38,688 bases of DNA, taken from positions 1 through 38,688 of the forward strand of contig CAZLMS010000001.1 in assembly GCA_964560645.1 (NCBI GenBank), given 5' to 3'. A program made the translations under genes and the position numbers. Each line of letters opens with the position of its first letter. Within the stretch, counting starts at the first letter, position 1. The notes below the pieces were generated by a model. That model was not told the origin of the DNA and made no database searches. It saw nothing but the letters and a program-made list of their open reading frames with translations. Source of the DNA: an uncultured Flavobacteriales bacterium (GTDB taxonomy: Bacteria; Bacteroidota; Bacteroidia; Flavobacteriales_G; NORP312). Of this stretch, positions 10,443-37,021 are shown in pieces.

Positions 10443-10585
10443 AGTTTAATTTTTTAAGCAGGGTTTTCAATTTATATGCCGTTTGCGAAAATAGTATTAA
10501 AATGTCAGGTTTTCTGAAAAAATAACATATATTAACAGGAAAGCGAAGAAAGGATGATTTTTGTTTGCAAAAAAGTGTCGAAAGG

Positions 10586-10813
10586 TTATATTTTTTTAAC
10601 TTTGATTATTTTTACGGGACATACTTCAGCAGCAACCTGGGCGTCTTCCCATTCATGATTACCGACTTTCGCAGTGTATATTTCTTTCTTGTTTTTTCCT
10701 TCGAGTAAAACGACTTTTCCGTCTTTTTTAGACATTGCCCATCGATAGGGTGCGGCTTCCACGCAATAGTTACACCCGATACATTTTTCTCTGTAATGAG
10801 TAATAATAACCAT
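10586..10813 (-). CDS. small single-cluster ferredoxin
   Basis: 75 aa with CIGCNYC near the N-terminus and CPVKII near the C-terminus (C-x2-C-x2-C ... CP). Its ATG overlaps the U32 stop (TAATG). Confidence 0.8.
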   Translation of the reverse strand: MVIITHYREKCIGCNYCVEAAPYRWAMSKKDGKVVLLEGKNKKEIYTAKVGNHEWEDAQVAAEVCPVKIIKVKKI

Positions 10814-12060
10814 TAGGCATCTACCAGTTTATATACTTTGTCGGAGGGTTTAACGGGTCGGTCTATCGGAAAAGTAACCAATTCTCCTTTTCGAGCTTCC
10901 GTTACCGGTTGATTATTTACACGTATTTCAGACACTTGGGTTTCATATACACCAGATTCCGGACCTATGACGAGTATTTTATCTCCTTGTTTTAAAGTGC
11001 CGGCGTCAATTTGCATTTGTGCCACTTTTATTTTTTTGTAATAATGCTGACCTTTTCCGACGAAAACTTTTTTTTGCGTAGCTTTAGAGCCGTTGGTGCC
11101 ACTCCATTCTCCAAGTTTTTTACCCAAGTAATACCCGCCCCAAAATCCTCGGTTATATACCGTAGATAACCTTTTCATCCATTCCTGAATTTTTTCTTGG
11201 TTATAGGTGCCGTTTGCTACGGCATCAATTGCTTCTCGATAGCATTTTGTAACGGTGGCTACATATTCCGGCGCTCGTCCCCGACCTTCTAATTTAAGCA
11301 CGGAAATTCCCGTGGCAATGAGTTTGTCTAAAAAGTCTATGGTACATAAGTCTTTGGGTGACATGATAAATTCATTGTCAATTTGCAACTCATTGCCTTC
11401 TTCATCTATTACGGTATATTTCCTTCTGCAGTTTTGAATACAGGCACCTCTGTTTGCTGATGCGTTGTGGGTATGTAAGCTCATGTAACATTTTCCTGAT
11501 ACGGCAACGCACAAGGCTCCGTGTGCAAAAACTTCAATTCTTACCAATTCGCCGTTGGGCCCTTTTATTTGTTCTTTTTCAATTGCTTTGCAAATTTGTT
11601 CTACTTGTCTTAAACTCAATTCTCTGGAGAGTACCATTACTTCGGCAAAAGGACTGAAGAAACGCACGCTCTCGATATTTGTAATATTCACTTGGGTGGA
11701 GATATGCACAGGTACTTTTTGGGTAAAAGCATAATTGATAGCGGCAATATCGGAGGCAATTACGGCAGAAATTCCGGTTTCTTTTACCCGGTCAACGATT
11801 TTTCGCATAACCGACAGGTCATGGTCATACATAATAGTGTTGAGGGTCAGGTAGGTTTTAATGTTGTGCTTGGAACACAATTCGGATATTTTTTCTAAAT
11901 CGTTAATTGTGAAATTATTCGCGGATTTTGCCCGCATGTTCAATTGTTCAATTCCAAAGTACACGGAGTCGGCACCGTTTTGAATGGCAGCTCTCAACGC
12001 TTCCCAAGAGCCGGCAGGAGCCATAAGTTCTACTTTTTGCATAAGTGCAATTTTTTTCAC
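10813..12060 (-). CDS. peptidase U32 family protein (Fe-S hydroxylase-type, TrhP/RlhA/UbiU-like)
   Basis: N-terminus VELMAPAGSWEALRAAIQNGADSVYFG. Cluster motif C-x6-C-x15-C-x3-C counted in HGALCVAVSGKCYMSLHTHNASANRGACIQNC. The GTG at 12060 sits inside a candidate -7 box, so ATG 12042 (MQKVELMAPAGS) is the more likely true start. Confidence 0.9.
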   Translation of the reverse strand: MKKIALMQKVELMAPAGSWEALRAAIQNGADSVYFGIEQLNMRAKSANNFTINDLEKISELCSKHNIKTYLTLNTIMYDHDLSVMRKIVDRVKETGISAVIASDIAAINYAFTQKVPVHISTQVNITNIESVRFFSPFAEVMVLSRELSLRQVEQICKAIEKEQIKGPNGELVRIEVFAHGALCVAVSGKCYMSLHTHNASANRGACIQNCRRKYTVIDEEGNELQIDNEFIMSPKDLCTIDFLDKLIATGISVLKLEGRGRAPEYVATVTKCYREAIDAVANGTYNQEKIQEWMKRLSTVYNRGFWGGYYLGKKLGEWSGTNGSKATQKKVFVGKGQHYYKKIKVAQMQIDAGTLKQGDKILVIGPESGVYETQVSEIRVNNQPVTEARKGELVTFPIDRPVKPSDKVYKLVDA

Positions 12061-28385: not shown

Positions 28386-29009
28386 TTAGCGGGTTGCGGA
28401 ATGATTTAAATCATGTTCCGGACAATCTATTTTCAACTCATTATCAGCAAGAGTCTTATTCAATAGATTACAAAAATGTTCTTGTTTGTGTTCTTGAAAT
28501 TGATAATAGATACAGGTAAAACACATTCGCTGAATACTAATAATTCCTAATTGGTTAAGATGATAAATGATATTAAGCAATGCTGAAAACAGGTTTTCTT
28601 TGGAAGAAAGAGGTAGTCTTTCAATTGAATGTTGTATTTCTTGTGCGAAGAAAGACATTTCTTCAGCAACGCTTTTCCCTTTAGAAGTTAAATGAATAAG
28701 ATAGCTTCTGGTGTCATCTTTACCAGGCTCTTTTATGATTAATTTTTTTTGTTCAAGAGTTTTTATAGTATTGCTTATTGTAGCTTTGGTTACATTAAGC
28801 TCATTTGCTAAATAACTGACTTTTCTTTTGTCTGAGGTATGATACCGAAGAAATATTAATATTTGAGCTTGAATGGGAGTAACAGACAAGTTTTTCCCTT
28901 TGCTCCAAAGTAAAACCTTAAATGCTTGTGAAATGCGTTCTAATGAAGCAACAATTTTACTTTCATTACTTTCATTTTGATGAATTAAGTCAAAGGCTGA
29001 TTTTGTCAT
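28386..29009 (-). CDS. MarR-family winged-helix regulator with a C-terminal four-Cys/His extension
   Basis: 207 aa. wHTH core (LSVTPIQAQILIFL......KRKVSYLANELNVTKATISNTIKTLEQKKLI.KE....D.R.YLI.LT.KG). The only four Cys lie in the tail: C163-x2-C166-x13-C180-x15-C196-x2-H199. Confidence 0.8.
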   Translation of the reverse strand: MTKSAFDLIHQNESNESKIVASLERISQAFKVLLWSKGKNLSVTPIQAQILIFLRYHTSDKRKVSYLANELNVTKATISNTIKTLEQKKLIIKEPGKDDTRSYLIHLTSKGKSVAEEMSFFAQEIQHSIERLPLSSKENLFSALLNIIYHLNQLGIISIQRMCFTCIYYQFQEHKQEHFCNLLNKTLADNELKIDCPEHDLNHSATR

Positions 29010-29272
29010 TAATTACAATTTTCAATTTCGTAAATATAATAACCTTTTTGTTTGATATGTGTTTCCCATTCATGTTTTAAGTTTTCAATATGGCAAAATT
29101 TACATTCTCTTGAACTTAGAGATACATCTTTTAATCCTTTGCTTTTTAAATATTCTTTTCCATAATTATAAATTACGGATGGATCGTTTATAGTTGTAGG
29201 AACTATAATATCAAAATGCATTACATTCCCGTCTTTTTTGGTTACATAAGTGTCATAAACTGCTATTTTCAT
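29009..29272 (-). CDS. DUF2024-like small protein with a CxxCH motif
   Basis: 87 aa: MKIAVYDTYV.KKDG.VMHFDI.VP ... ECKFCHIE ... GYYIYEIENC. The family name comes from my memory of PF09630-type sequences. Its stop overlaps the MarR ATG (TAATG). Confidence 0.65.
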   Translation of the reverse strand: MKIAVYDTYVTKKDGNVMHFDIIVPTTINDPSVIYNYGKEYLKSKGLKDVSLSSRECKFCHIENLKHEWETHIKQKGYYIYEIENCN

Positions 29273-29307
29273 TTTTTATATTTTTTAGTTGATGAATAAT
29301 GAAAATG

Positions 29308-29365
29308 AGGGATAGCTTTACCTGCAGGAGCAATAAATATCGTTATGTGGCAATTAGCTATCCCT
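29308..29365. repeat. perfect 10-bp inverted repeat AGGGATAGCT ... AGCTATCCCT with a 38-nt spacer containing a CCTGCAGG palindrome
   Basis: Read directly from the sequence. It lies in the 107-bp gap between the protoglobin stop and the DUF2024 start. Confidence 0.5.
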
Positions 29366-29379
29366 GTTTACTAATATTT

Positions 29380-29961
29380 TTAGAACTCTCCTTTGTTAAT
29401 ATAAGGATAGGTCCATAAGATTGCTGTAAGTGTAACTGCTTTGAACCACGCATTGTACATGCCTTCCACGTCTGAATCGGAATGTCCTTTTTTGGCTAAA
29501 AACGGTTTAATTGTAGTTGTGATGGGATAGATAAATGTTATCATATAACGATAGTGGACTATTGGAGCTGTGTCTACTCCGTCTGTTTGGTTTTTCTTAG
29601 TGCTATGATGTCGTTTGGCAATTTCATACTGATAATCGAGCCATTTTTGATCATACGGTTTTTGGCATAAATCCATAATCCACTGTCCGAACCTTGCTCT
29701 TACAGCAGATAGGTACTCTGTATTAGGTTGTCCGTTTTTGGAGAAATAATATAACAAATGATCATGACTTCCTACATATCCGTACCATAAATCCAACACT
29801 TCTTCCACTTGGTCTTTTAAAACTTCTCCGGCCATTTTTAAATAGTGATCATCATCTTCTGACCAAAGTAAAGTCTTCTTTAGAAGAGTTAAATCTTCCA
29901 TAGTAACAGGCGATTGTTCTAATGTCGCCTTGCCATAGTCGTAACCTTTAATTGTTTCCAT
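29380..29961 (-). CDS. single-domain protoglobin (heme globin, PF11563-type)
   Basis: 193 aa. Near end-to-end resemblance to the M. acetivorans protoglobin as recalled: SPVTMEDL.LLKK, YLK.AGEVLKDQVEE.LD.WYG.VGSH.HLLYYF, RF..WI.D, YDQ.WLDYQYEI..RHH.TKKNQTD, YRY...FIYPIT...KPFLA.KGH, W.YPY...G.F. Confidence 0.85.
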   Translation of the reverse strand: METIKGYDYGKATLEQSPVTMEDLTLLKKTLLWSEDDDHYLKMAGEVLKDQVEEVLDLWYGYVGSHDHLLYYFSKNGQPNTEYLSAVRARFGQWIMDLCQKPYDQKWLDYQYEIAKRHHSTKKNQTDGVDTAPIVHYRYMITFIYPITTTIKPFLAKKGHSDSDVEGMYNAWFKAVTLTAILWTYPYINKGEF

Positions 29962-30008
29962 AGGGCATTGATTTTTTTGGTTATTAAAATATGTTTAACA
30001 TTTCTGCA

Positions 30009-30016
30009 CAAATATA
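30009..30016 (-). promoter_or_regulatory. candidate -7 box TATATTTG for the protoglobin operon
   Basis: The plus strand reads CAAATATA, 47 nt upstream of the protoglobin ATG at 29961. Confidence 0.4.
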
Positions 30017-30021
30017 AAAAA

Positions 30022-30036
30022 TAGTTAGCATAACTA
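30022..30036. promoter_or_regulatory. palindrome TAGTTA-GCA-TAACTA, candidate MarR operator
   Basis: Perfect 6-3-6 inverted repeat, 5 nt upstream of the candidate -7 box and therefore inside the promoter spacer. Confidence 0.35.
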
Positions 30037-30155
30037 ACAATATATGAAAAAATTTTTTAACCGTAAAAACGAAAGGAGAACTCGGTTTTTTGAAAAAATT
30101 GATAATTTTCAATTGCAAGAAAATGGTGAGATAATTAGTAAAATTGTTTTATTCC

Positions 30156-30215: not shown

Positions 30216-30980
30216 TTAATTTTTCCTGTTCTCTCCCAAAATTTTATAGGGCTTGAATTTTTTTCGTTTGTTAAGTTTGAATTTTTTCACGGCATTTTCT
30301 ATTAAGAAATTTTTGGTTTCTTCTATGCTGTCGGTAAACAAGAACAAATTTTTATCTTCTTCGTCTATGGTACCTTCTTGAGCCATTTTTTCTACATGCT
30401 TGTATAGATGCTCGTAAAACTCCGTTCCGAAAATTACTACGGGAAAAGGCTTTATTTTATTGGTTTGAATAAGTGTTAAACATTCAAAAAGTTCATCGAG
30501 CGTACCATATCCTCCGGGGAAAATTACAAATCCGTAAGAGTATTTAGTGAGCATTACTTTTCGCACAAAAAAATAATGGAAATTCAGCCATTTGTCTAAA
30601 TACGGATTGGGTTTTTGTTCGTGGGGTAAAATAATATTGCACCCGACAGTTTTTCCTCCAACTTGTTTTGCACCTCTGGGAGCAGCTTCCATAATACCCG
30701 GTCCGCCGCCGGTCATCACGGTTAAACCTAATTCGGCAATGATTTTTCCTACTTCTTCGGCTTTTTGATAATAGAAATCGGTTGCTTTTAGACGGGCAGA
30801 ACCGTACACGGTAATACAAGGACCTACAAAATGCAACATTCTGAAAGCCCGGATAAATTCTTTAAAAACAGCCAAAGCAAAATTAAAGTCTTGCAAACGT
30901 CCTTGAGGACCTTCCAAAAACTTTTTTTCTTCTTTAGAGGGCTTTCCGTAAAGTTTGTGTATAAATTGGTAGTCTTTCAT
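30216..30980 (-). CDS. LOG family (TIGR00730) nucleotide phosphoribohydrolase
   Basis: GGGPGIMEA and PGGYGTLDELFE (PGGxGTxxE) motifs. 254 aa. Confidence 0.9.
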   Translation of the reverse strand: MKDYQFIHKLYGKPSKEEKKFLEGPQGRLQDFNFALAVFKEFIRAFRMLHFVGPCITVYGSARLKATDFYYQKAEEVGKIIAELGLTVMTGGGPGIMEAAPRGAKQVGGKTVGCNIILPHEQKPNPYLDKWLNFHYFFVRKVMLTKYSYGFVIFPGGYGTLDELFECLTLIQTNKIKPFPVVIFGTEFYEHLYKHVEKMAQEGTIDEEDKNLFLFTDSIEETKNFLIENAVKKFKLNKRKKFKPYKILGENRKN

Positions 30981-31738
30981 TGATTGAGATTTGTGTGATT
31001 GTTGTCATTGTTTTTCTTAGTGATGTGATAGTGTACTTTTACATGCGGATTATGATGATGAGGTTCTTTCGGATGAGGTTTTCCGTCTTCATATTCTTCG
31101 TCGCCGTCATCTTCCAATTCCCATTCATATACAGGTTTTTGCGGACCTTCTTTTCTGAAATAATAAGCCAATATCAACCCGGCTACAAATCCGTAAAAAT
31201 GAGCTTCAAAAGAAATCTCTTTTTTGAGTGGAAAAATTCCCCAAATCATGCTGCCGTATAAAAATACGACTAATAAAGAAATAGCGATGAGTTTGTAGTA
31301 TTTTCTGAAAATTCCGCTGAAAAAAATAAAAGAAGCTAATCCGTACACAATTCCGCTGGCTCCGATGTGGTAAGAAGGTCGTGCCAAAGCCCATAGCCAC
31401 AATCCGCTCATAAGCCAAATCCAAAAAAATATTTTAACAGCCACGGGTTTGTAGAAATAAAACAGCACACTGCCTAAAATTAAAACAGGAACAGTGTTAT
31501 TGATAAGATGATTCCAACTTCCGTGAATAAAAGGAGCAGTAATAATGTGAATTAAACTTTCCGGATTTCTCGGATAAATTCCCCATTTGTAAAAGTCGGA
31601 ATATTCCGGTTCAATGATTTTTACAGTCCACATAATTGCTGCAAACAATAAAGGAAGCCAAAAGTCTTGGATTTTTATTTTACGGGCGTGTGTGTTTGAT
31701 TTATGCATCTTGTTGTTTAGATTCTTCCCAAATAACAT
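30977..31738 (-). CDS. rhomboid family intramembrane serine protease with an acidic/His-rich C-terminal tail
   Basis: WNHLINN (TM2 H..N), GASGIVYGL (catalytic Ser), and AHFYGFVAG (catalytic His). The alternative ATG at 31708 would cut the overlap with mazG from 38 to 8 nt. Confidence 0.85.
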   Translation of the reverse strand: MLFGKNLNNKMHKSNTHARKIKIQDFWLPLLFAAIMWTVKIIEPEYSDFYKWGIYPRNPESLIHIITAPFIHGSWNHLINNTVPVLILGSVLFYFYKPVAVKIFFWIWLMSGLWLWALARPSYHIGASGIVYGLASFIFFSGIFRKYYKLIAISLLVVFLYGSMIWGIFPLKKEISFEAHFYGFVAGLILAYYFRKEGPQKPVYEWELEDDGDEEYEDGKPHPKEPHHHNPHVKVHYHITKKNNDNNHTNLNQ

Positions 31739-34930: not shown

Positions 34931-37021
34931 TTAATTGTAATTAGGTAAAAGAGAATATTTTTTGGCGTAGTATAACATTTGTTCGGAGAACACTTCGGGA
35001 TATTCAATTTTAACATCTACAATTCTTCCATTTTCCATTACCGGCTTAAGAACGGGATTGATAAACCCTCCGTAAGGAGCAATGTTAAGTTTTTCCCATC
35101 TTGCAAGTACTTCTTTATGAAGTTCGGGGTCAACTTTTACGCCGTAAGTTTCCACTAAGTATTTACCGGCTTGATAATCACCTTCCGATTTTATTCTTTG
35201 AATTTCTCTGAGCAATTCACCAAACAGGGTTCTTAGTTTTTCGTAATTGTTAATTACAAAATAGGTTTTACCGTCTTTGGTTTTCTTTTCAATCACATTA
35301 TCGGCTTTACCTTTTTCATATACCCATTTGGCTACCATTTGTCGGTTTCTCATGTGGGCTTCTTCTAATTGTTCGCCCGGTTTCAGTCTTACTAATTGAC
35401 GCATTAAGCCGTTTACAATGTAATCGTCATAAGCGGCTTTTCCCACTTCCAAGCTGGGCATTACGCCGATTTCTATAAGTTTAGGGTCCATTAAATAATA
35501 CAGTGCCACCAAATCTGCACGAGCTTCTTCCAATGTAGAAGAATAATTTTTTAACGTTTCTTTTGGAGTTTTTACGCCGGGTTTTAACTTTCCTGATGCA
35601 TGTCCTATTACTTCATGCATGTCGGTGTGTAGTTTGTCCGCTAAACTTCCGTATTCTTTTTGTCTTTTTATTTCTTCTTCGGAGTAATAAAATTCTTCCA
35701 ATGCACCGCCACTTTTGGCTGCTTGTTCATAAGCCTCTACAATGTTTCCTAAGTTTACTGATTTTGAACCGTGTTCGGCTCTTATCCAGTTGGCATTAGG
35801 CAAGTTAATTCCGATTGGGGTAGAAGGAGATGCATCACCGGCTTCTACGATTACGGTAATCACTTTTGCCGAAATTCCTTTTACTTTTTCTTTTTTGTAT
35901 TCATCTGGAATAGGAGAATGGTCTTCAAACCATTGTGCATTGGCACCGATAGTGGCAATACGCTTAGTAGCTTCCTTATCTTTAAAAGATACTACCGATT
36001 CGTAAGAACCTTTATATCCTAAAGGATCGTTGTAAACCTCAATAAATCCGTTTACCACATCAATTACAGAGTTGGTGTCGTTTACCCATGCAATGTTGTA
36101 TTCATCCCAAGTTTTTAAATCTCCTGTTTTGTAATATTTCACAAGAAGTTCAAGGGCTTTTTTCTGTTGGTCGTTTTCGGCAACGGTTATGGCTTTCTCG
36201 AGCCAGTAAACAATTTTTTCGATAGCAGGAGAATACATGCCGCCGACTTTCCATACCCGTTCCTTAATTTCTCCGTTGTCTTTTATTACTTTTGAATTTA
36301 ATCCGACAGAAATGGGGTGAGGGTCGTTCGGGTCGGTCATTTTTCCGTAAAAATCTTCCACTTCTTTTTGGGTTACACCTTCGTAGAAATTTACGGCAGA
36401 GGTCAAAACCAAATCATCTTCGGGGTTTAAGTTTACTTTTTTGGGTGCAATGGTTTTGTCAAAAATCACGGGAGTAATTTTTTCCAACAGTTGTTCTGCC
36501 GTTTCATTTTCGTCTAACGGTAAATGTTCTTTTACGGACATTGCCGCATTTTTGAAAAATTCTTGAGAAAATTCCGGTTCAAATTTTTCATTGGAATAAT
36601 GGTGGTGTATTCCGTTAGAAAACCAAACACGTTTTGTGTAGATTTCAAAGTTTTTCCAATCTTCCGAGCTCTTATCGCCTTTAAAATTTTCAAAAATCGC
36701 CTCTAAAGTTCTTCTTATTTTAAGATTGTGTTTAAAGTTCTGGTCCCACATAATATCGCGTCCGGCTAAAGCGGCTTCGTAGAGATAATAAGCCAACTCT
36801 TTTTGCTGAGGAGTAAGCTCTTCAAAGCCGGGTACACGGTAGCGAATAATTTTTAAATCGGCAAACTGTTCTGCTAAATACTTAAATTCCTCATTTTGCT
36901 TTTGATTTTCCGTACTTTCGGGTTTAGATGCCGCATCGGATTTTTTTTCGGCATTGTTGTTGCAAGCCCAAAAGGAAACACTTGTAACAAAAGCCAGTGC
37001 AAAGATTTTTAATTGTTTCAT
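34931..37021 (-). CDS. dipeptidyl-peptidase III (M49 family) lipoprotein
   Basis: 696 aa with lipobox FWAC. Zinc motifs HEVIGH (HExxGH) and EEARADL (EExRAE/D). Confidence 0.88.
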   Translation of the reverse strand: MKQLKIFALAFVTSVSFWACNNNAEKKSDAASKPESTENQKQNEEFKYLAEQFADLKIIRYRVPGFEELTPQQKELAYYLYEAALAGRDIMWDQNFKHNLKIRRTLEAIFENFKGDKSSEDWKNFEIYTKRVWFSNGIHHHYSNEKFEPEFSQEFFKNAAMSVKEHLPLDENETAEQLLEKITPVIFDKTIAPKKVNLNPEDDLVLTSAVNFYEGVTQKEVEDFYGKMTDPNDPHPISVGLNSKVIKDNGEIKERVWKVGGMYSPAIEKIVYWLEKAITVAENDQQKKALELLVKYYKTGDLKTWDEYNIAWVNDTNSVIDVVNGFIEVYNDPLGYKGSYESVVSFKDKEATKRIATIGANAQWFEDHSPIPDEYKKEKVKGISAKVITVIVEAGDASPSTPIGINLPNANWIRAEHGSKSVNLGNIVEAYEQAAKSGGALEEFYYSEEEIKRQKEYGSLADKLHTDMHEVIGHASGKLKPGVKTPKETLKNYSSTLEEARADLVALYYLMDPKLIEIGVMPSLEVGKAAYDDYIVNGLMRQLVRLKPGEQLEEAHMRNRQMVAKWVYEKGKADNVIEKKTKDGKTYFVINNYEKLRTLFGELLREIQRIKSEGDYQAGKYLVETYGVKVDPELHKEVLARWEKLNIAPYGGFINPVLKPVMENGRIVDVKIEYPEVFSEQMLYYAKKYSLLPNYN

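Follow-up and report, generated by a model that had tools for sequence, protein, structure and literature searches.

What does a single-domain protoglobin do for a bacterium, and with which genes does it work? Protoglobins are structurally well studied and, in engineered form, find wide use as carbene-transfer catalysts. In vitro work suggests several possible roles, and for the protein of Methanosarcina acetivorans (MaPgb) nitrite-reductase and peroxynitrite-isomerase activities were seen in vitro (PMC4020757). The question is raised here by a protoglobin gene in an uncultured Flavobacteriales bacterium, on a stretch of 38,688 nucleotides (the window). The answer that we favour, and hold to be evenly poised between right and wrong, is that this gene and its two neighbours would form one self-contained, autoregulated stress operon, derepressed once NO or another oxidant has modified a Cys4 metal centre. 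With its predicted repressor, defined operator and recurring partners, a conserved operon of this kind would make the native role of protoglobin directly testable, and the cassette hints at how aerobic Bacteroidota may cope with NO or redox stress.

A three-gene cassette on the minus strand

A sequence-only reading of the window had proposed three minus-strand open reading frames, all of which were present at the coordinates claimed:

29380..29961, minus strand: protoglobin, 193 aa, single-domain, first cistron
29009..29272, minus strand: DUF2024 protein, 87 aa
28386..29009, minus strand: predicted MarR-family repressor, 207 aa, with a four-Cys C-terminus

The 107-nt spacer between protoglobin and DUF2024, and the TAATG overlap of the DUF2024 stop with the MarR start, were also as described. 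Two small Cys/His proteins had been counted in the unit; only one, DUF2024, was found. The window genes that flank the cassette are unrelated housekeeping genes, with UppS and BamA on one side and LOG-like, rhomboid and MazG genes on the other. A literature search returned no paper describing the cassette and none linking protoglobin with MarR or DUF2024.

The protoglobin retains the haem pocket of MaPgb

The 193-aa product matched Pfam PF11563 at 112.7 bits (cutoff 25) over profile positions 2–157 of 158. Residues 2–193 aligned to residues 4–195 of MaPgb (2veb) with 114 of 191 positions identical (59%; E 1.9e-79), and the Aeropyrum pernix protein ApPgb (7ute) was matched at E 2.7e-69, which bears out the near end-to-end likeness to MaPgb that had been proposed. 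Because the alignment begins at residue 2 of 193 against 4 of 195, the N-terminal extension of about 20 residues that buries the haem is retained. No second Pfam domain was present, in agreement with the description of the protein as stand-alone.

The proximal histidine had been placed at H119. A proximal histidine does align, and it is H118 instead, which falls on MaPgb His120 (F8); H119 aligns with His121, and both residues are invariant in an alignment of 10 sequences that includes MaPgb. The proposed W59/Y60 pair aligned with MaPgb Trp60/Tyr61. All haem-pocket and tunnel residues checked were conserved relative to MaPgb, namely H118 and the residues assigned by alignment to the distal side and tunnel (W59, Y60, V87, F91, F143 and I147, with R117 and C99 (E20) in addition). 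In the helix notation of MaPgb, W59, Y60, F91 and F143 correspond to Trp(B9), Tyr(B10), Phe(E11) and Phe(G8). We describe the product as a PF11563 family protein with predicted haem b and diatomic-ligand binding.

The single-domain format of about 195 aa is shared with MaPgb and ApPgb. Whereas those two are archaeal, the window protein is bacterial (from a Bacteroidota MAG), and its gene is predicted to head an operon that has a repressor and an operator of its own. The view of single-domain protoglobins as a chiefly archaeal class had to be revised: relatives filled 2587 database clusters at E ≤ 1e-10, the best of them mostly from Bacteroidota, and the class is thus not rare in bacteria. Some relatives are paralogues bearing signal peptides.

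Linkage of the three genes across phyla

Eighty loci from GTDB species representatives were selected by protoglobin similarity as the sole criterion. A MarR gene with the four-Cys tail (MarR-Cys4) adjoined protoglobin in 67 of the 80 and DUF2024 did so in 55, so the linkage suggested from the single window recurs across genomes. Within these protoglobin-selected loci it spans Bacteroidota, Ignavibacteriota, Calditrichota, Kryptoniota and Acidobacteriota, and the carriers are mainly aerobic Bacteroidota. Cultured carriers of the cassette include Flavobacterium cyanobacteriorum TH021 (protoglobin–DUF2024–MarR), F. aurantiibacter TH167, F. maritimum SYSU M80005 and Pseudochryseolinea flava SDU1-6. 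All-against-all clustering of the same loci gave no further neighbour family in more than 10 of them, and such linkage amid variable flanks rules out a chance adjacency. Protoglobins without the MarR gene stood in contexts that, judged by eye, seemed unrelated (hydrolases, an isochorismatase-like protein, cold-shock proteins, LysR).

A MarR regulator with a C-terminal Cys4 domain

The 207-aa product matched the Pfam models MarR_2 (41.3 bits, cutoff 27) and MarR (32.9 bits, cutoff 24.6), and two regions could be delimited:

28650..28883, minus strand: winged helix-turn-helix region, MarR residues 43–120, from the MarR_2/HTH_27 stretch (43–111) and the secondary structure of the model
28410..28538, minus strand: C-terminal Cys4 domain, MarR residues 158–200, QRMC163-x2-C166-x13-C180-x15-C196-PEH

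Residues 1–155 of the structural model superposed on MepR, ST1710 and SlyA over about 135–145 residues (TM at most 0.84 when normalised by the length of the target). The tail was modelled with only moderate confidence (pLDDT 54–70); its predicted topology is akin to that of treble clefs or ribbons that bind zinc, having a CxxC knuckle and short beta strands, with the last Cys at a helix start. Foldseek searches with the model matched the MarR core and gave no match to the tail, the tail had no match in Pfam or NCBIfam, and its profile returned only noise (E > 0.1) from PDB sequences.

C163, C166, C180 and C196 are invariant in every tail-bearing orthologue. A profile search located the domain in 743 clusters at 50% identity, nearly always at the C-terminus of MarR proteins of about 200 aa, which marks out a large, still unnamed MarR subfamily whose Cys4 domain is private to it; no other architecture was found in that search. 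Two longer matches were set aside, one of 698 aa with 8 repeats (P0495) that looks like translated repetitive DNA and one of 459 aa (P0373) that looks like a fusion or misassembly. The domain is predicted to be a sensory metal site, and could instead be a purely structural zinc site.

Wing-helix regulators with a C-terminal four-Cys site whose metal state governs DNA binding are established in SufR ([4Fe-4S]) and CopY (Zn/Cu(I)). MarR-Cys4 shares this architecture with them but differs in its Cys spacing (C-x2-C-x13-C-x15-C), its true MarR-fold core and its regulon. Since no Rrf2, NsrR, SufR or Crp model from Pfam or NCBIfam matched the MarR protein (Rrf2, NsrR and SufR at E ≤ 0.01), MarR-Cys4 may work like the Fe-S sensors and is not to be called a member of their families.

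Sister cassettes carry exchangeable cargo

A second sample of 80 loci was chosen through the regulator. DUF2024 was present in 58 of the 80, a thioredoxin-like protein also in 58, a group III truncated haemoglobin in 14 and protoglobin in 9. The picture of a protoglobin-headed cassette thus stood as to linkage and as to the first gene in the window, and fell as to protoglobin being the defining member; these counts place MarR-Cys4 and DUF2024 at the core, with swappable cargo. Three kinds of cargo are interchangeable: a 77-aa thioredoxin-like protein, a truncated haemoglobin of Ctb type, and protoglobin. Sister cassettes have this regulator and operator in common, and in them one or both of the other two take the place of protoglobin or accompany it. 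The truncated haemoglobin belongs to group III (match to 2ig3, E 2.3e-11), and the thioredoxin-like protein has a thioredoxin fold with a CPVC motif (match to 2k8s, E 5.4e-26). Such exchange points to a general globin and thiol defence set, and not to a protoglobin-specific pathway. Across the 160 loci clustered, the recurrent neighbour families did not include a flavohaemoglobin (Hmp).

Several minor associations were noted. A 247-aa secreted protein with an N-terminal CDKCG recurs, 13 loci have a YggS-like gene downstream of the regulator, fused to a rhodanese domain in at least one of them, and DsbA-like and HxlR-type genes adjoin some cassettes. Two cassettes contain DUF302, and two loci have a Tll0287-like haem protein of c type.

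As the thioredoxin-like protein is the commonest cargo in the regulator-selected loci, thiol or disulfide stress is indicated at least as much as NO. The same operon might answer to disulfide or oxidative stress, from O2-derived oxidants, HOCl or electrophiles like diamide, through a Zn(Cys)4 redox switch like those of RsrA and Hsp33, with protoglobin as an O2 buffer or peroxidase and with the thioredoxin-like protein and DUF2024 repairing thiols. We regard this account as rather unlikely. In its favour, the CPVC protein is the commonest first gene (58/80), the tail topology is of a zinc-binding kind, DsbA-like and HxlR-type genes lie beside some cassettes, and the carriers are mainly aerobic. 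Against it stands the recurrence of two unrelated globin classes, in other bacteria the signature of NO-responsive regulons (PMC4601167, PMC12343034), and catalase, peroxiredoxin and thioredoxin reductase were never found in the cassette in either 80-locus set.

The frequent haem cargo, which includes the Tll0287-like protein, bears also on a scheme in which the regulator would sense free haem, like the MarR-family PefR, and the operon would supply haem sinks. PefR–haem complexes were among the Foldseek matches to the MarR core, and the DC-P-EH stretch could be read as a Cys-Pro haem-regulatory motif, the C196-P197 dipeptide being present in many members. The proline is variable, however, with CAEH, CEEF, CGEF, CSEF and CTEH also seen; the invariance of all four cysteines suggests a tetrahedral metal site over a single axial ligand; and the commonest cassettes have no haem protein. 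We find this scheme barely credible.

A predicted operator on the cassette promoter

The following elements were read upstream of protoglobin:

30009..30041, minus strand: cassette promoter of Bacteroidota type, read from the sequence
30038..30040, minus strand: -33-like TTG, followed by a 21-nt spacer
30009..30016, minus strand: -7 box TATATTTG, read from the sequence
30024..30038, no strand assigned: predicted MarR-Cys4 operator GTTAGttatgCTAAC, a palindrome of GTTAG and CTAAC arms around ttatg

The -33/-7 consensus is established for Bacteroidetes promoters. A sigma-70 promoter scan gave background level only, its model not being applicable to Bacteroidota.

Across related loci the operator family has the consensus TAGTTAGGAwTCCTAACTA (TTTTTATAGTTAGGAATCCTAACTATATTTG). 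With a site counted at up to 3 mismatches from GTTMGGAWTCCKAAC, one was found upstream of protoglobin in 58 of the 67 MarR-positive loci, and none in the MarR-negative loci with complete flanks (L019, L021, L035, L037, L072, L075 and L080). In 37 of 61 related loci a -7 box TAnnTTTG follows directly on the operator core (offset 0). Counting against the favoured reading, the window operator is degenerate at inner positions (15/19 match to the consensus) and its -7 box lies 7 nt farther away than usual. Among the regulator-selected metagenome loci, the site stands before the first gene, whichever gene that is, in 61 of 72; by first gene this came to 49/55 for thioredoxin-like, 6/6 for protoglobin and 2/2 for truncated globin. 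Flavobacterium columnare has three operator copies, and its cassette is of the thioredoxin-like version and lacks protoglobin.

GTTAG-N5-CTAAC occurs in one perfect copy in the whole 38.7-kb window. Sites with one mismatch at 36614 and 38108 were considered as further operators and put down to chance (3 found against 0.74 expected; 5 of 100 shuffles reached 3), and extra sites in related loci were weak matches or cassette promoters missed by the gene calls. The conserved palindrome on the cassette promoter, co-occurring with MarR-Cys4, lends support to the idea of a dedicated regulator, and we predict the palindrome to be its operator.

DUF2024 gains a context

The 87-aa product matched PF09630 at 117.9 bits (cutoff 27) and the structure of NE1680 (2hfq) at E 1.9e-20. 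Its AlphaFold model (pLDDT 88) gave 2hfq as the sole Foldseek match (TM 0.79–0.81); kinship with the cytidine-deaminase fold was dismissed, the matches being weak (prob ~0.2, TM 0.38, rmsd > 10 Å). At least 93% of homologues retain C57, C60, H61 and C86 (C-x2-C-H...C). Family, fold and these residues are shared with NE1680; the window protein differs in being tied to a specific regulator and to globin and thioredoxin partners, a new context and the first functional one for this structural-genomics orphan. DUF2024 (arCOG08720, Nmar_1229) is listed as an uncharacterised 'metal-binding protein' conserved in Thaumarchaeota (PMC6393860). The gene is also found solo, for example in Fermentimonas, where it lies beside rhodanese.

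It is a guess that this Cys3His protein may be a redox or metal partner of the haem protein. The window copy has no signal peptide; about one-third of DUF2024 genes have a signal-peptide-like extension, which is hard to square with DUF2024 serving a cytoplasmic globin from within the cytoplasm.

Rhodanese beside the solo Fermentimonas gene, the YggS-like genes of 13 loci with their rhodanese fusion, and DUF302 in two cassettes would suit a role in sulfide metabolism, in which the regulator cysteines sense sulfide or persulfide, the globins oxidise or bind sulfide, and DUF2024 and the thioredoxin-like protein handle persulfides. The rhodanese-type neighbours fall outside the operator-controlled unit, though, and no sulfide:quinone oxidoreductase, persulfide dioxygenase or TusA was present in the 160 loci clustered, and such a role is very improbable. 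We also think it very improbable that the regulator is a CopY-type sensor of thiophilic metals (Cu(I), Cd, Zn, Hg), with DUF2024, the CPVC protein and the secreted CxxC protein binding metal. A CxxC-type motif does occur in every recurrent non-globin member (C-x2-C-H in DUF2024, CPVC, CDKCG), and the annotation of DUF2024 as metal-binding (PMC6393860) agrees with it; yet no efflux P-type ATPase, RND or CDF transporter or multicopper oxidase was linked in either 80-locus set, and globins make no sense as metal-resistance cargo.

Proposed mechanism and known systems

For the favoured NO- or oxidant-responsive operon, the architecture is well supported by what can be read from the sequences; the effector and chemistry we infer. 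Comparative genomics points to a MarR-type dimer with a C-terminal Cys4 domain as the dedicated regulator, and to a palindromic operator of 15–19 bp that lies within or abuts the -7 element of the first gene's Bacteroidota-type promoter. Given the position of the operator and MarR precedent, the bound repressor would block RNA polymerase. The Cys4 domain would hold an Fe-S cluster or a Zn-thiolate as its metal centre, and a small reactive molecule would modify this centre and so release the repressor. The favoured signal would be NO or reactive nitrogen species, followed by O2-derived oxidants or disulfide stress. The haem protein may then consume or trap the stressor, whether by dioxygenating NO, isomerising peroxynitrite or buffering the ligand. 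An NO dioxygenase cycle would require a reductase, and the absence of one from the operon counts against our best reading.

The closest logic is that of ArnR–hmp in Corynebacterium glutamicum: ArnR, a winged helix-turn-helix regulator with a C-terminal [4Fe-4S] domain, represses hmp until NO releases it (PMC12343034), and it shares with our proposal a MarR/ArsR-like repressor, a Cys-bearing C-terminal sensor, a globin promoter and release by NO. By description, ArnR has three conserved Cys and a larger C-terminal domain, is nearly confined to Actinobacteria and controls flavohaemoglobin and nar; the window regulator, in contrast, combines a six-helix MarR core with a Cys4 tail of about 45 aa, occurs in Bacteroidota and related phyla and has protoglobin, truncated haemoglobin or thioredoxin-like cargo. 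NsrR–hmp (Rrf2) and Campylobacter NssR–cgb/ctb (Crp/Fnr; PMC4601167) are likewise small NO-responsive regulons with mainly globin products. The ctb product of the NssR regulon is a Ctb-type group III truncated haemoglobin, as is cargo of the sister cassettes; NssR is an activator, whereas MarR-Cys4 is a predicted repressor of another family.

A wider proposal, which we consider doubtful, is that MarR-Cys4 may be an unrecognised class of metal-thiolate (probably Fe-S) NO sensors in Bacteroidota, Ignavibacteriota, Calditrichota and Kryptoniota, that bacterial protoglobins would natively serve inducible detoxification of NO and reactive nitrogen species, interchangeably with Ctb-type truncated haemoglobins, and that DUF2024 might be the redox partner that recycles these reductase-less globins.

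A conserved hairpin between protoglobin and DUF2024

Two elements were located in the 107-nt spacer:

29309..29364, minus strand: hairpin between protoglobin and DUF2024, 9-bp stem GGGAUAGCU/AGCUAUCCC with a 38-nt loop
29293..29308, minus strand: interrupted U-rich tail UCAUUUUCAUUAUUC after the hairpin

The hairpin has a folding energy of -22.8 kcal/mol (z -3.35), and none of 200 shuffles was equally stable. A terminator scan did not call it, the loop being too long (38 nt, atypical), and an Rfam search gave nothing relevant (a single snoRNA match, E 0.18). It is probably a leaky terminator or a transcript-end stabiliser between protoglobin and DUF2024–MarR. Together with the first position of protoglobin, it would yield more protoglobin message than DUF2024 or MarR message, a step that is partly shown.

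The same stem was found in 18 of 23 protoglobin–DUF2024 spacers, 12 of which also encode a small hydrophobic peptide. For the window such a peptide was rejected, with a stop after 'GI..' in frame and no start codon, and only the hairpin applies. The peptide frame is interrupted in the window, L006, L013 and L030, but all four keep the stem (8–9 of 9 pairs); the window and L030 do so through paired, compensatory changes on both arms.

Identity of the cassette genes

The three minus-strand open reading frames lie exactly where a sequence-only reading had placed them, and the cassette has the following features.

29380..29961, minus strand: protoglobin, 193 aa (PF11563 and structure-sequence matches)
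29309..29364, minus strand: hairpin in the 107-nt protoglobin–DUF2024 gap; 9-bp stem GGGAUAGCU/AGCUAUCCC, then a U-rich tail
29009..29272, minus strand: DUF2024 protein, 87 aa (PF09630 and 2hfq matches)
28386..29009, minus strand: MarR-family regulator (MarR-Cys4), 207 aa, with tail cysteines C163, C166, C180 and C196 (MarR family match)
30024..30038, strand not applicable: predicted operator GTTAGttatgCTAAC, the sole perfect GTTAG-N5-CTAAC in 38.7 kb
30038..30040 and 30009..30016: TTG and TATATTTG, respectively, flanking the operator

The assignment of 29380..29961 as a protoglobin was borne out by a Pfam PF11563 score of 112.7 bits (cutoff 25), a match of residues 2–193 to residues 4–195 of Methanosarcina acetivorans protoglobin (MaPgb, 2veb; E 1.9e-79), and a match to Aeropyrum pernix protoglobin (7ute; E 2.7e-69). 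Global alignment with MaPgb gave 114/191 identities, whereby the proposed distal pair W59/Y60 falls on Trp60/Tyr61, and V87, F91, C99, R117, F143 and I147 correspond to Val89, Phe93, CysE20, Arg119, Phe145 and Ile149, respectively. H118 aligned with MaPgb His120 and is therefore the proximal histidine, one residue earlier than the H119 first suggested; both are invariant in an alignment of the window protein, bacterial homologues and MaPgb. Bacteria have many such protoglobins (2587 clusters at E ≤ 1e-10).

The DUF2024 protein matched PF09630 (117.9 bits) and the NMR structure of NE1680 (2hfq; E 1.9e-20), which was also the sole structural relative of its model (pLDDT 88). NE1680 shares C57, C60, H61 and C86, each of which at least 93% of aligned homologues retain. 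A literature search found no mention of the family beyond a table of conserved uncharacterised Thaumarchaeota proteins listing a "metal-binding protein, DUF2024 family" (PMC6393860).

Linkage of the three genes

The MarR start codon overlaps the DUF2024 stop codon (TAATG); this overlap and the 107-nt spacer behind the protoglobin gene are as the sequence-only reading described them. Unrelated housekeeping genes lie on both sides, a convergent UppS–BamA pair downstream and LOG-like, rhomboid and MazG genes upstream. The latter form a separate unit on the same strand, with overlaps of 38 nt (MazG/rhomboid, 31701..31738) and 4 nt (rhomboid/LOG-like, 30977..30980), ending 254 bp before the protoglobin start.

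For comparison across genomes, one genome per GTDB species was scanned and the best 80 protoglobin loci were taken with 6-kb flanks. BLASTP of all ORFs found a Cys-tailed MarR in 67/80 and DUF2024 in 55/80, so the proposed linkage is conserved. When neighbouring ORFs were clustered, only protoglobin, Cys-tailed MarR and DUF2024 occurred in more than 10 of these loci, most commonly in the single-strand order Pgb-DUF2024-MarR (Pgb, protoglobin). Four of the 13 MarR-less loci could not be scored, as their sequence stops within about 1 kb past the protoglobin. Carriers are Chitinophagaceae, Saprospiraceae, Cyclobacteriaceae, Flavobacteriales, Cytophagales, Ignavibacteriota, Kryptoniota, Calditrichota, Kapaibacteria and Acidobacteriota. 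Among the clear non-carriers are Pontibacter, Algoriphagus, Chloroflexus and Fischerella. One locus from a MAG labelled Hyphomicrobiales (L031) is very A+T-rich and has a Pgb-MarR cassette, operator and TAnnTTTG box as in Bacteroidota; its contig is probably mis-binned.

A shared, predicted operator on the promoter

A palindrome with the consensus TTTTTATAGTTAGGAATCCTAACTATATTTG is common to the 130-nt regions ahead of the protoglobin start. Scored at no more than three mismatches to GTTMGGAWTCCKAAC, it was found in 58/67 MarR-positive protoglobin-selected loci and was absent from all seven MarR-negative loci with full flanks; the only MarR-negative loci with a site were three contigs ending early and L028, where it is weak. 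MarR-positive loci without a call are mostly Flavobacteriales with a signal-peptide-bearing protoglobin, in which the stretch scanned as upstream is really coding sequence. Some Saprospiraceae and Lewinellaceae loci contain two sites with GTTCGGA half-sites. In 37/61 sites the palindrome core is directly followed by TAnnTTTG, the Bacteroidetes −7 promoter element. An operator that lies on the core promoter and is present or absent together with the regulator fits a MarR autorepressor, and MarR-Cys4 is predicted to bind the palindrome. A self-contained operon with a dedicated regulator and an operator on its promoter is well supported.

Cargo under the regulator

Metagenome contigs were also scanned with an alignment of MarR-Cys4 homologues, yielding 80 regulator-selected loci. 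These encode DUF2024 (58/80), a 77-aa protein (58/80), a 124-aa protein (14/80) and protoglobin (9/80). The 77-aa protein, with a CPVC motif, hit 2k8s, a structure of thioredoxin fold (Trx; E 5.4e-26). For the 124-aa protein the hits were Bac_globin and 2ig3, a group III truncated haemoglobin (trHb; E 2.3e-11). Observed orders were Trx-DUF2024-MarR, Trx-DUF2024-trHb-MarR, Trx-Pgb-MarR, Pgb-DUF2024-MarR and Pgb-DUF2024-trHb-MarR, and the operator precedes the first gene, whatever its identity, in 61 of 72 assessable loci. The cassette of Flavobacterium columnare, without protoglobin, reads operator, Trx-like, two operators, a 246-aa secreted protein, DUF2024, GGACT and MarR-Cys4; solo DUF2024 also exists, for example in Fermentimonas. 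From these counts and orders, the stable core is MarR-Cys4 with DUF2024, and protoglobin is one among several interchangeable cargo genes. Of the three-gene unit originally envisaged with protoglobin at its head, the conserved operon partners therefore stand, but protoglobin is not core. As a guess, DUF2024 might serve the globin or thioredoxin cargo as a redox or metal partner.

The regulator and its possible effector

All tail-bearing orthologues keep QRMC-x2-C-x11-13-C-x15-C followed by (P/A/E)E(H/F). The AlphaFold model (mean pLDDT 76.6) has a core of canonical MarR type that extends to about residue 155, and a tail (pLDDT 54–70) with short strands at 169–172, 177–180 and 185–187 and a helix from 197. 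Foldseek matched the core alone, to MepR, ST1710, SlyA, OhrR and PefR, and a tail profile found nothing among PDB sequences. Against 1.84 billion representative proteins the profile gave 743 clusters (E ≤ 1e-3), practically all proteins of ~190–215 aa with the tail C-terminal, or their fragments; the domain is private to this subfamily, which bears generic names only in public sources. With four invariant, irregularly spaced cysteines, the site would suit an Fe–S cluster or a Zn-thiolate site alike.

NO or reactive nitrogen species would be the favoured effector, since globins of two unrelated classes keep appearing as cargo, the nitrosative-stress regulon of Campylobacter includes those of the Ctb type (PMC4601167), and NO releases the winged-helix hmp repressor ArnR, which has a C-terminal cysteine-ligated [4Fe-4S] domain (PMC12343034). 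In vitro, moreover, MaPgb acts as a nitrite reductase and as a peroxynitrite isomerase (PMC4020757). When tested for membership, MarR-Cys4 did not fall within the NsrR, SufR or Crp families, and the likeness proposed to these or to ArnR is one of function only. The commonest cargo is the thioredoxin-like protein, which makes a zinc-thiolate switch responding to oxidative or disulfide stress a serious rival; sensing of sulfide/persulfide, thiophilic metals or haem by MarR-Cys4 are weaker candidates. The cassette would be a globin operon with a repressor of the redox/NO type, and it opens the question of what protoglobins do physiologically to experiments in cultured flavobacteria. The component families are already known and annotated; the conserved cassette, operator, Cys4-MarR subfamily and cargo swapping appear undescribed, and no paper tying protoglobin to MarR or DUF2024 was found in the literature search.

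A second MarR paralogue, without the cysteine tail and ending ...CGKTFA.NLMRGTPSFFLFTDSMEIL...., lies directly upstream of MarR-Cys4 in Cytophagales-type cassettes (L006, L048, L050, L052, L057, L061); a 411-aa call in L045/L046 is listed with these tandem genes.

The spacer hairpin

The spacer hairpin (−22.8 kcal/mol, z −3.35) was neither called by a terminator scan nor matched in Rfam. Its stem recurs in 18/23 comparable Pgb-DUF2024 spacers, and in 12 of those 18 it also codes, in a tiny conserved ORF, for a hydrophobic peptide (GIAGFLFFLLKGLIWLF) whose codons differ synonymously among loci (L002, L004, L015, L018, L024–L027, L033, L036, L038, L073); the sequence apparently serves two uses. 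The peptide frame is broken in the window, L006, L013 and L030, with 8–9/9 stem pairs still formed, and in the window and L030 the stem is kept by changes in both arms (GGA/TCC to GGG/CCC, GCC/GGC to GCT/AGC). The hairpin may be a leaky terminator, or may stabilise the transcript end, and would favour protoglobin over the DUF2024-MarR message.

Signal-bearing forms and neighbouring genes

Protoglobin paralogues of 216–228 aa begin with a clear signal peptide (e.g. MKKIFSIVIIFCITASSYAQ...). They are the second gene after protoglobin, at ~+600 nt, in L047–L052, L056 and L061, and the protoglobin itself in L053–L055, L064 and L067; in some Flavobacteriales the sole protoglobin bears the signal peptide. 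Trp-Tyr and the proximal His are kept, and the second His is Tyr (RHYS) in 3/4 sequences read. Exported or periplasmic protoglobins, if such they are, would be unusual.

An in-frame, ATG-initiated, Sec-signal-like extension of 27–31 aa (MKLFLNIVLLLICFQVCSQ...) precedes the usual MKVAVWDTY start in 36/99 DUF2024 genes (L004, L015, L027, L032, L033, L053, L064, L067, L086–L107 and others). L039 and L076 instead carry the small hydrophobic peptide described above as their extension, and the window gene has none. If DUF2024 were exported, its invariant C-x2-C-H would amount to a motif for attaching haem c.

A secreted protein of 246–247 aa lies between the first gene and DUF2024 in L029 (939–1682), L034 (6599–7342), L041 (6597–7340) and L081 (3033–3773), F. 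columnare included, with a predicted mature N-terminus CDKCG, motifs HPDFDDSPLWDE and WHPHW, and no match in Pfam or NCBIfam. Proteins of 80–114 aa lie within or just past the cassette in L042–L044 (group c23), L024/L047/L051/L056 (c11) and L045/L046/L050/L052 (c15); one of these groups hits PF07073, the Rho-modulator ROF family, at E 6e-7, no family match came up for the remaining two, and c15 and the ROF-like group have an (I/M)(R/D)RI(I/L)-type stretch in common. The truncated globin and MarR-Cys4 of L151 (59–1375) and L152 (3203–4519) come after another set of genes, which encode a Tll0287-like c-type haem protein (CxxCH), a protein resembling cupins and DUF302. In L027 and L033 (~10486–11328) a three-Cys Rrf2-family regulator is paired with a group III truncated haemoglobin some 4 kb away from the cassette, and in L045 (8735–10961) and L046 (2877–5400) the gene after an Rrf2 regulator encodes a divergent haem-copper oxidase subunit of cbb3-like type, at 257 bits far under the 583-bit cutoff of the ccoN model. 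These may be further clustered NO/O2-related genes.
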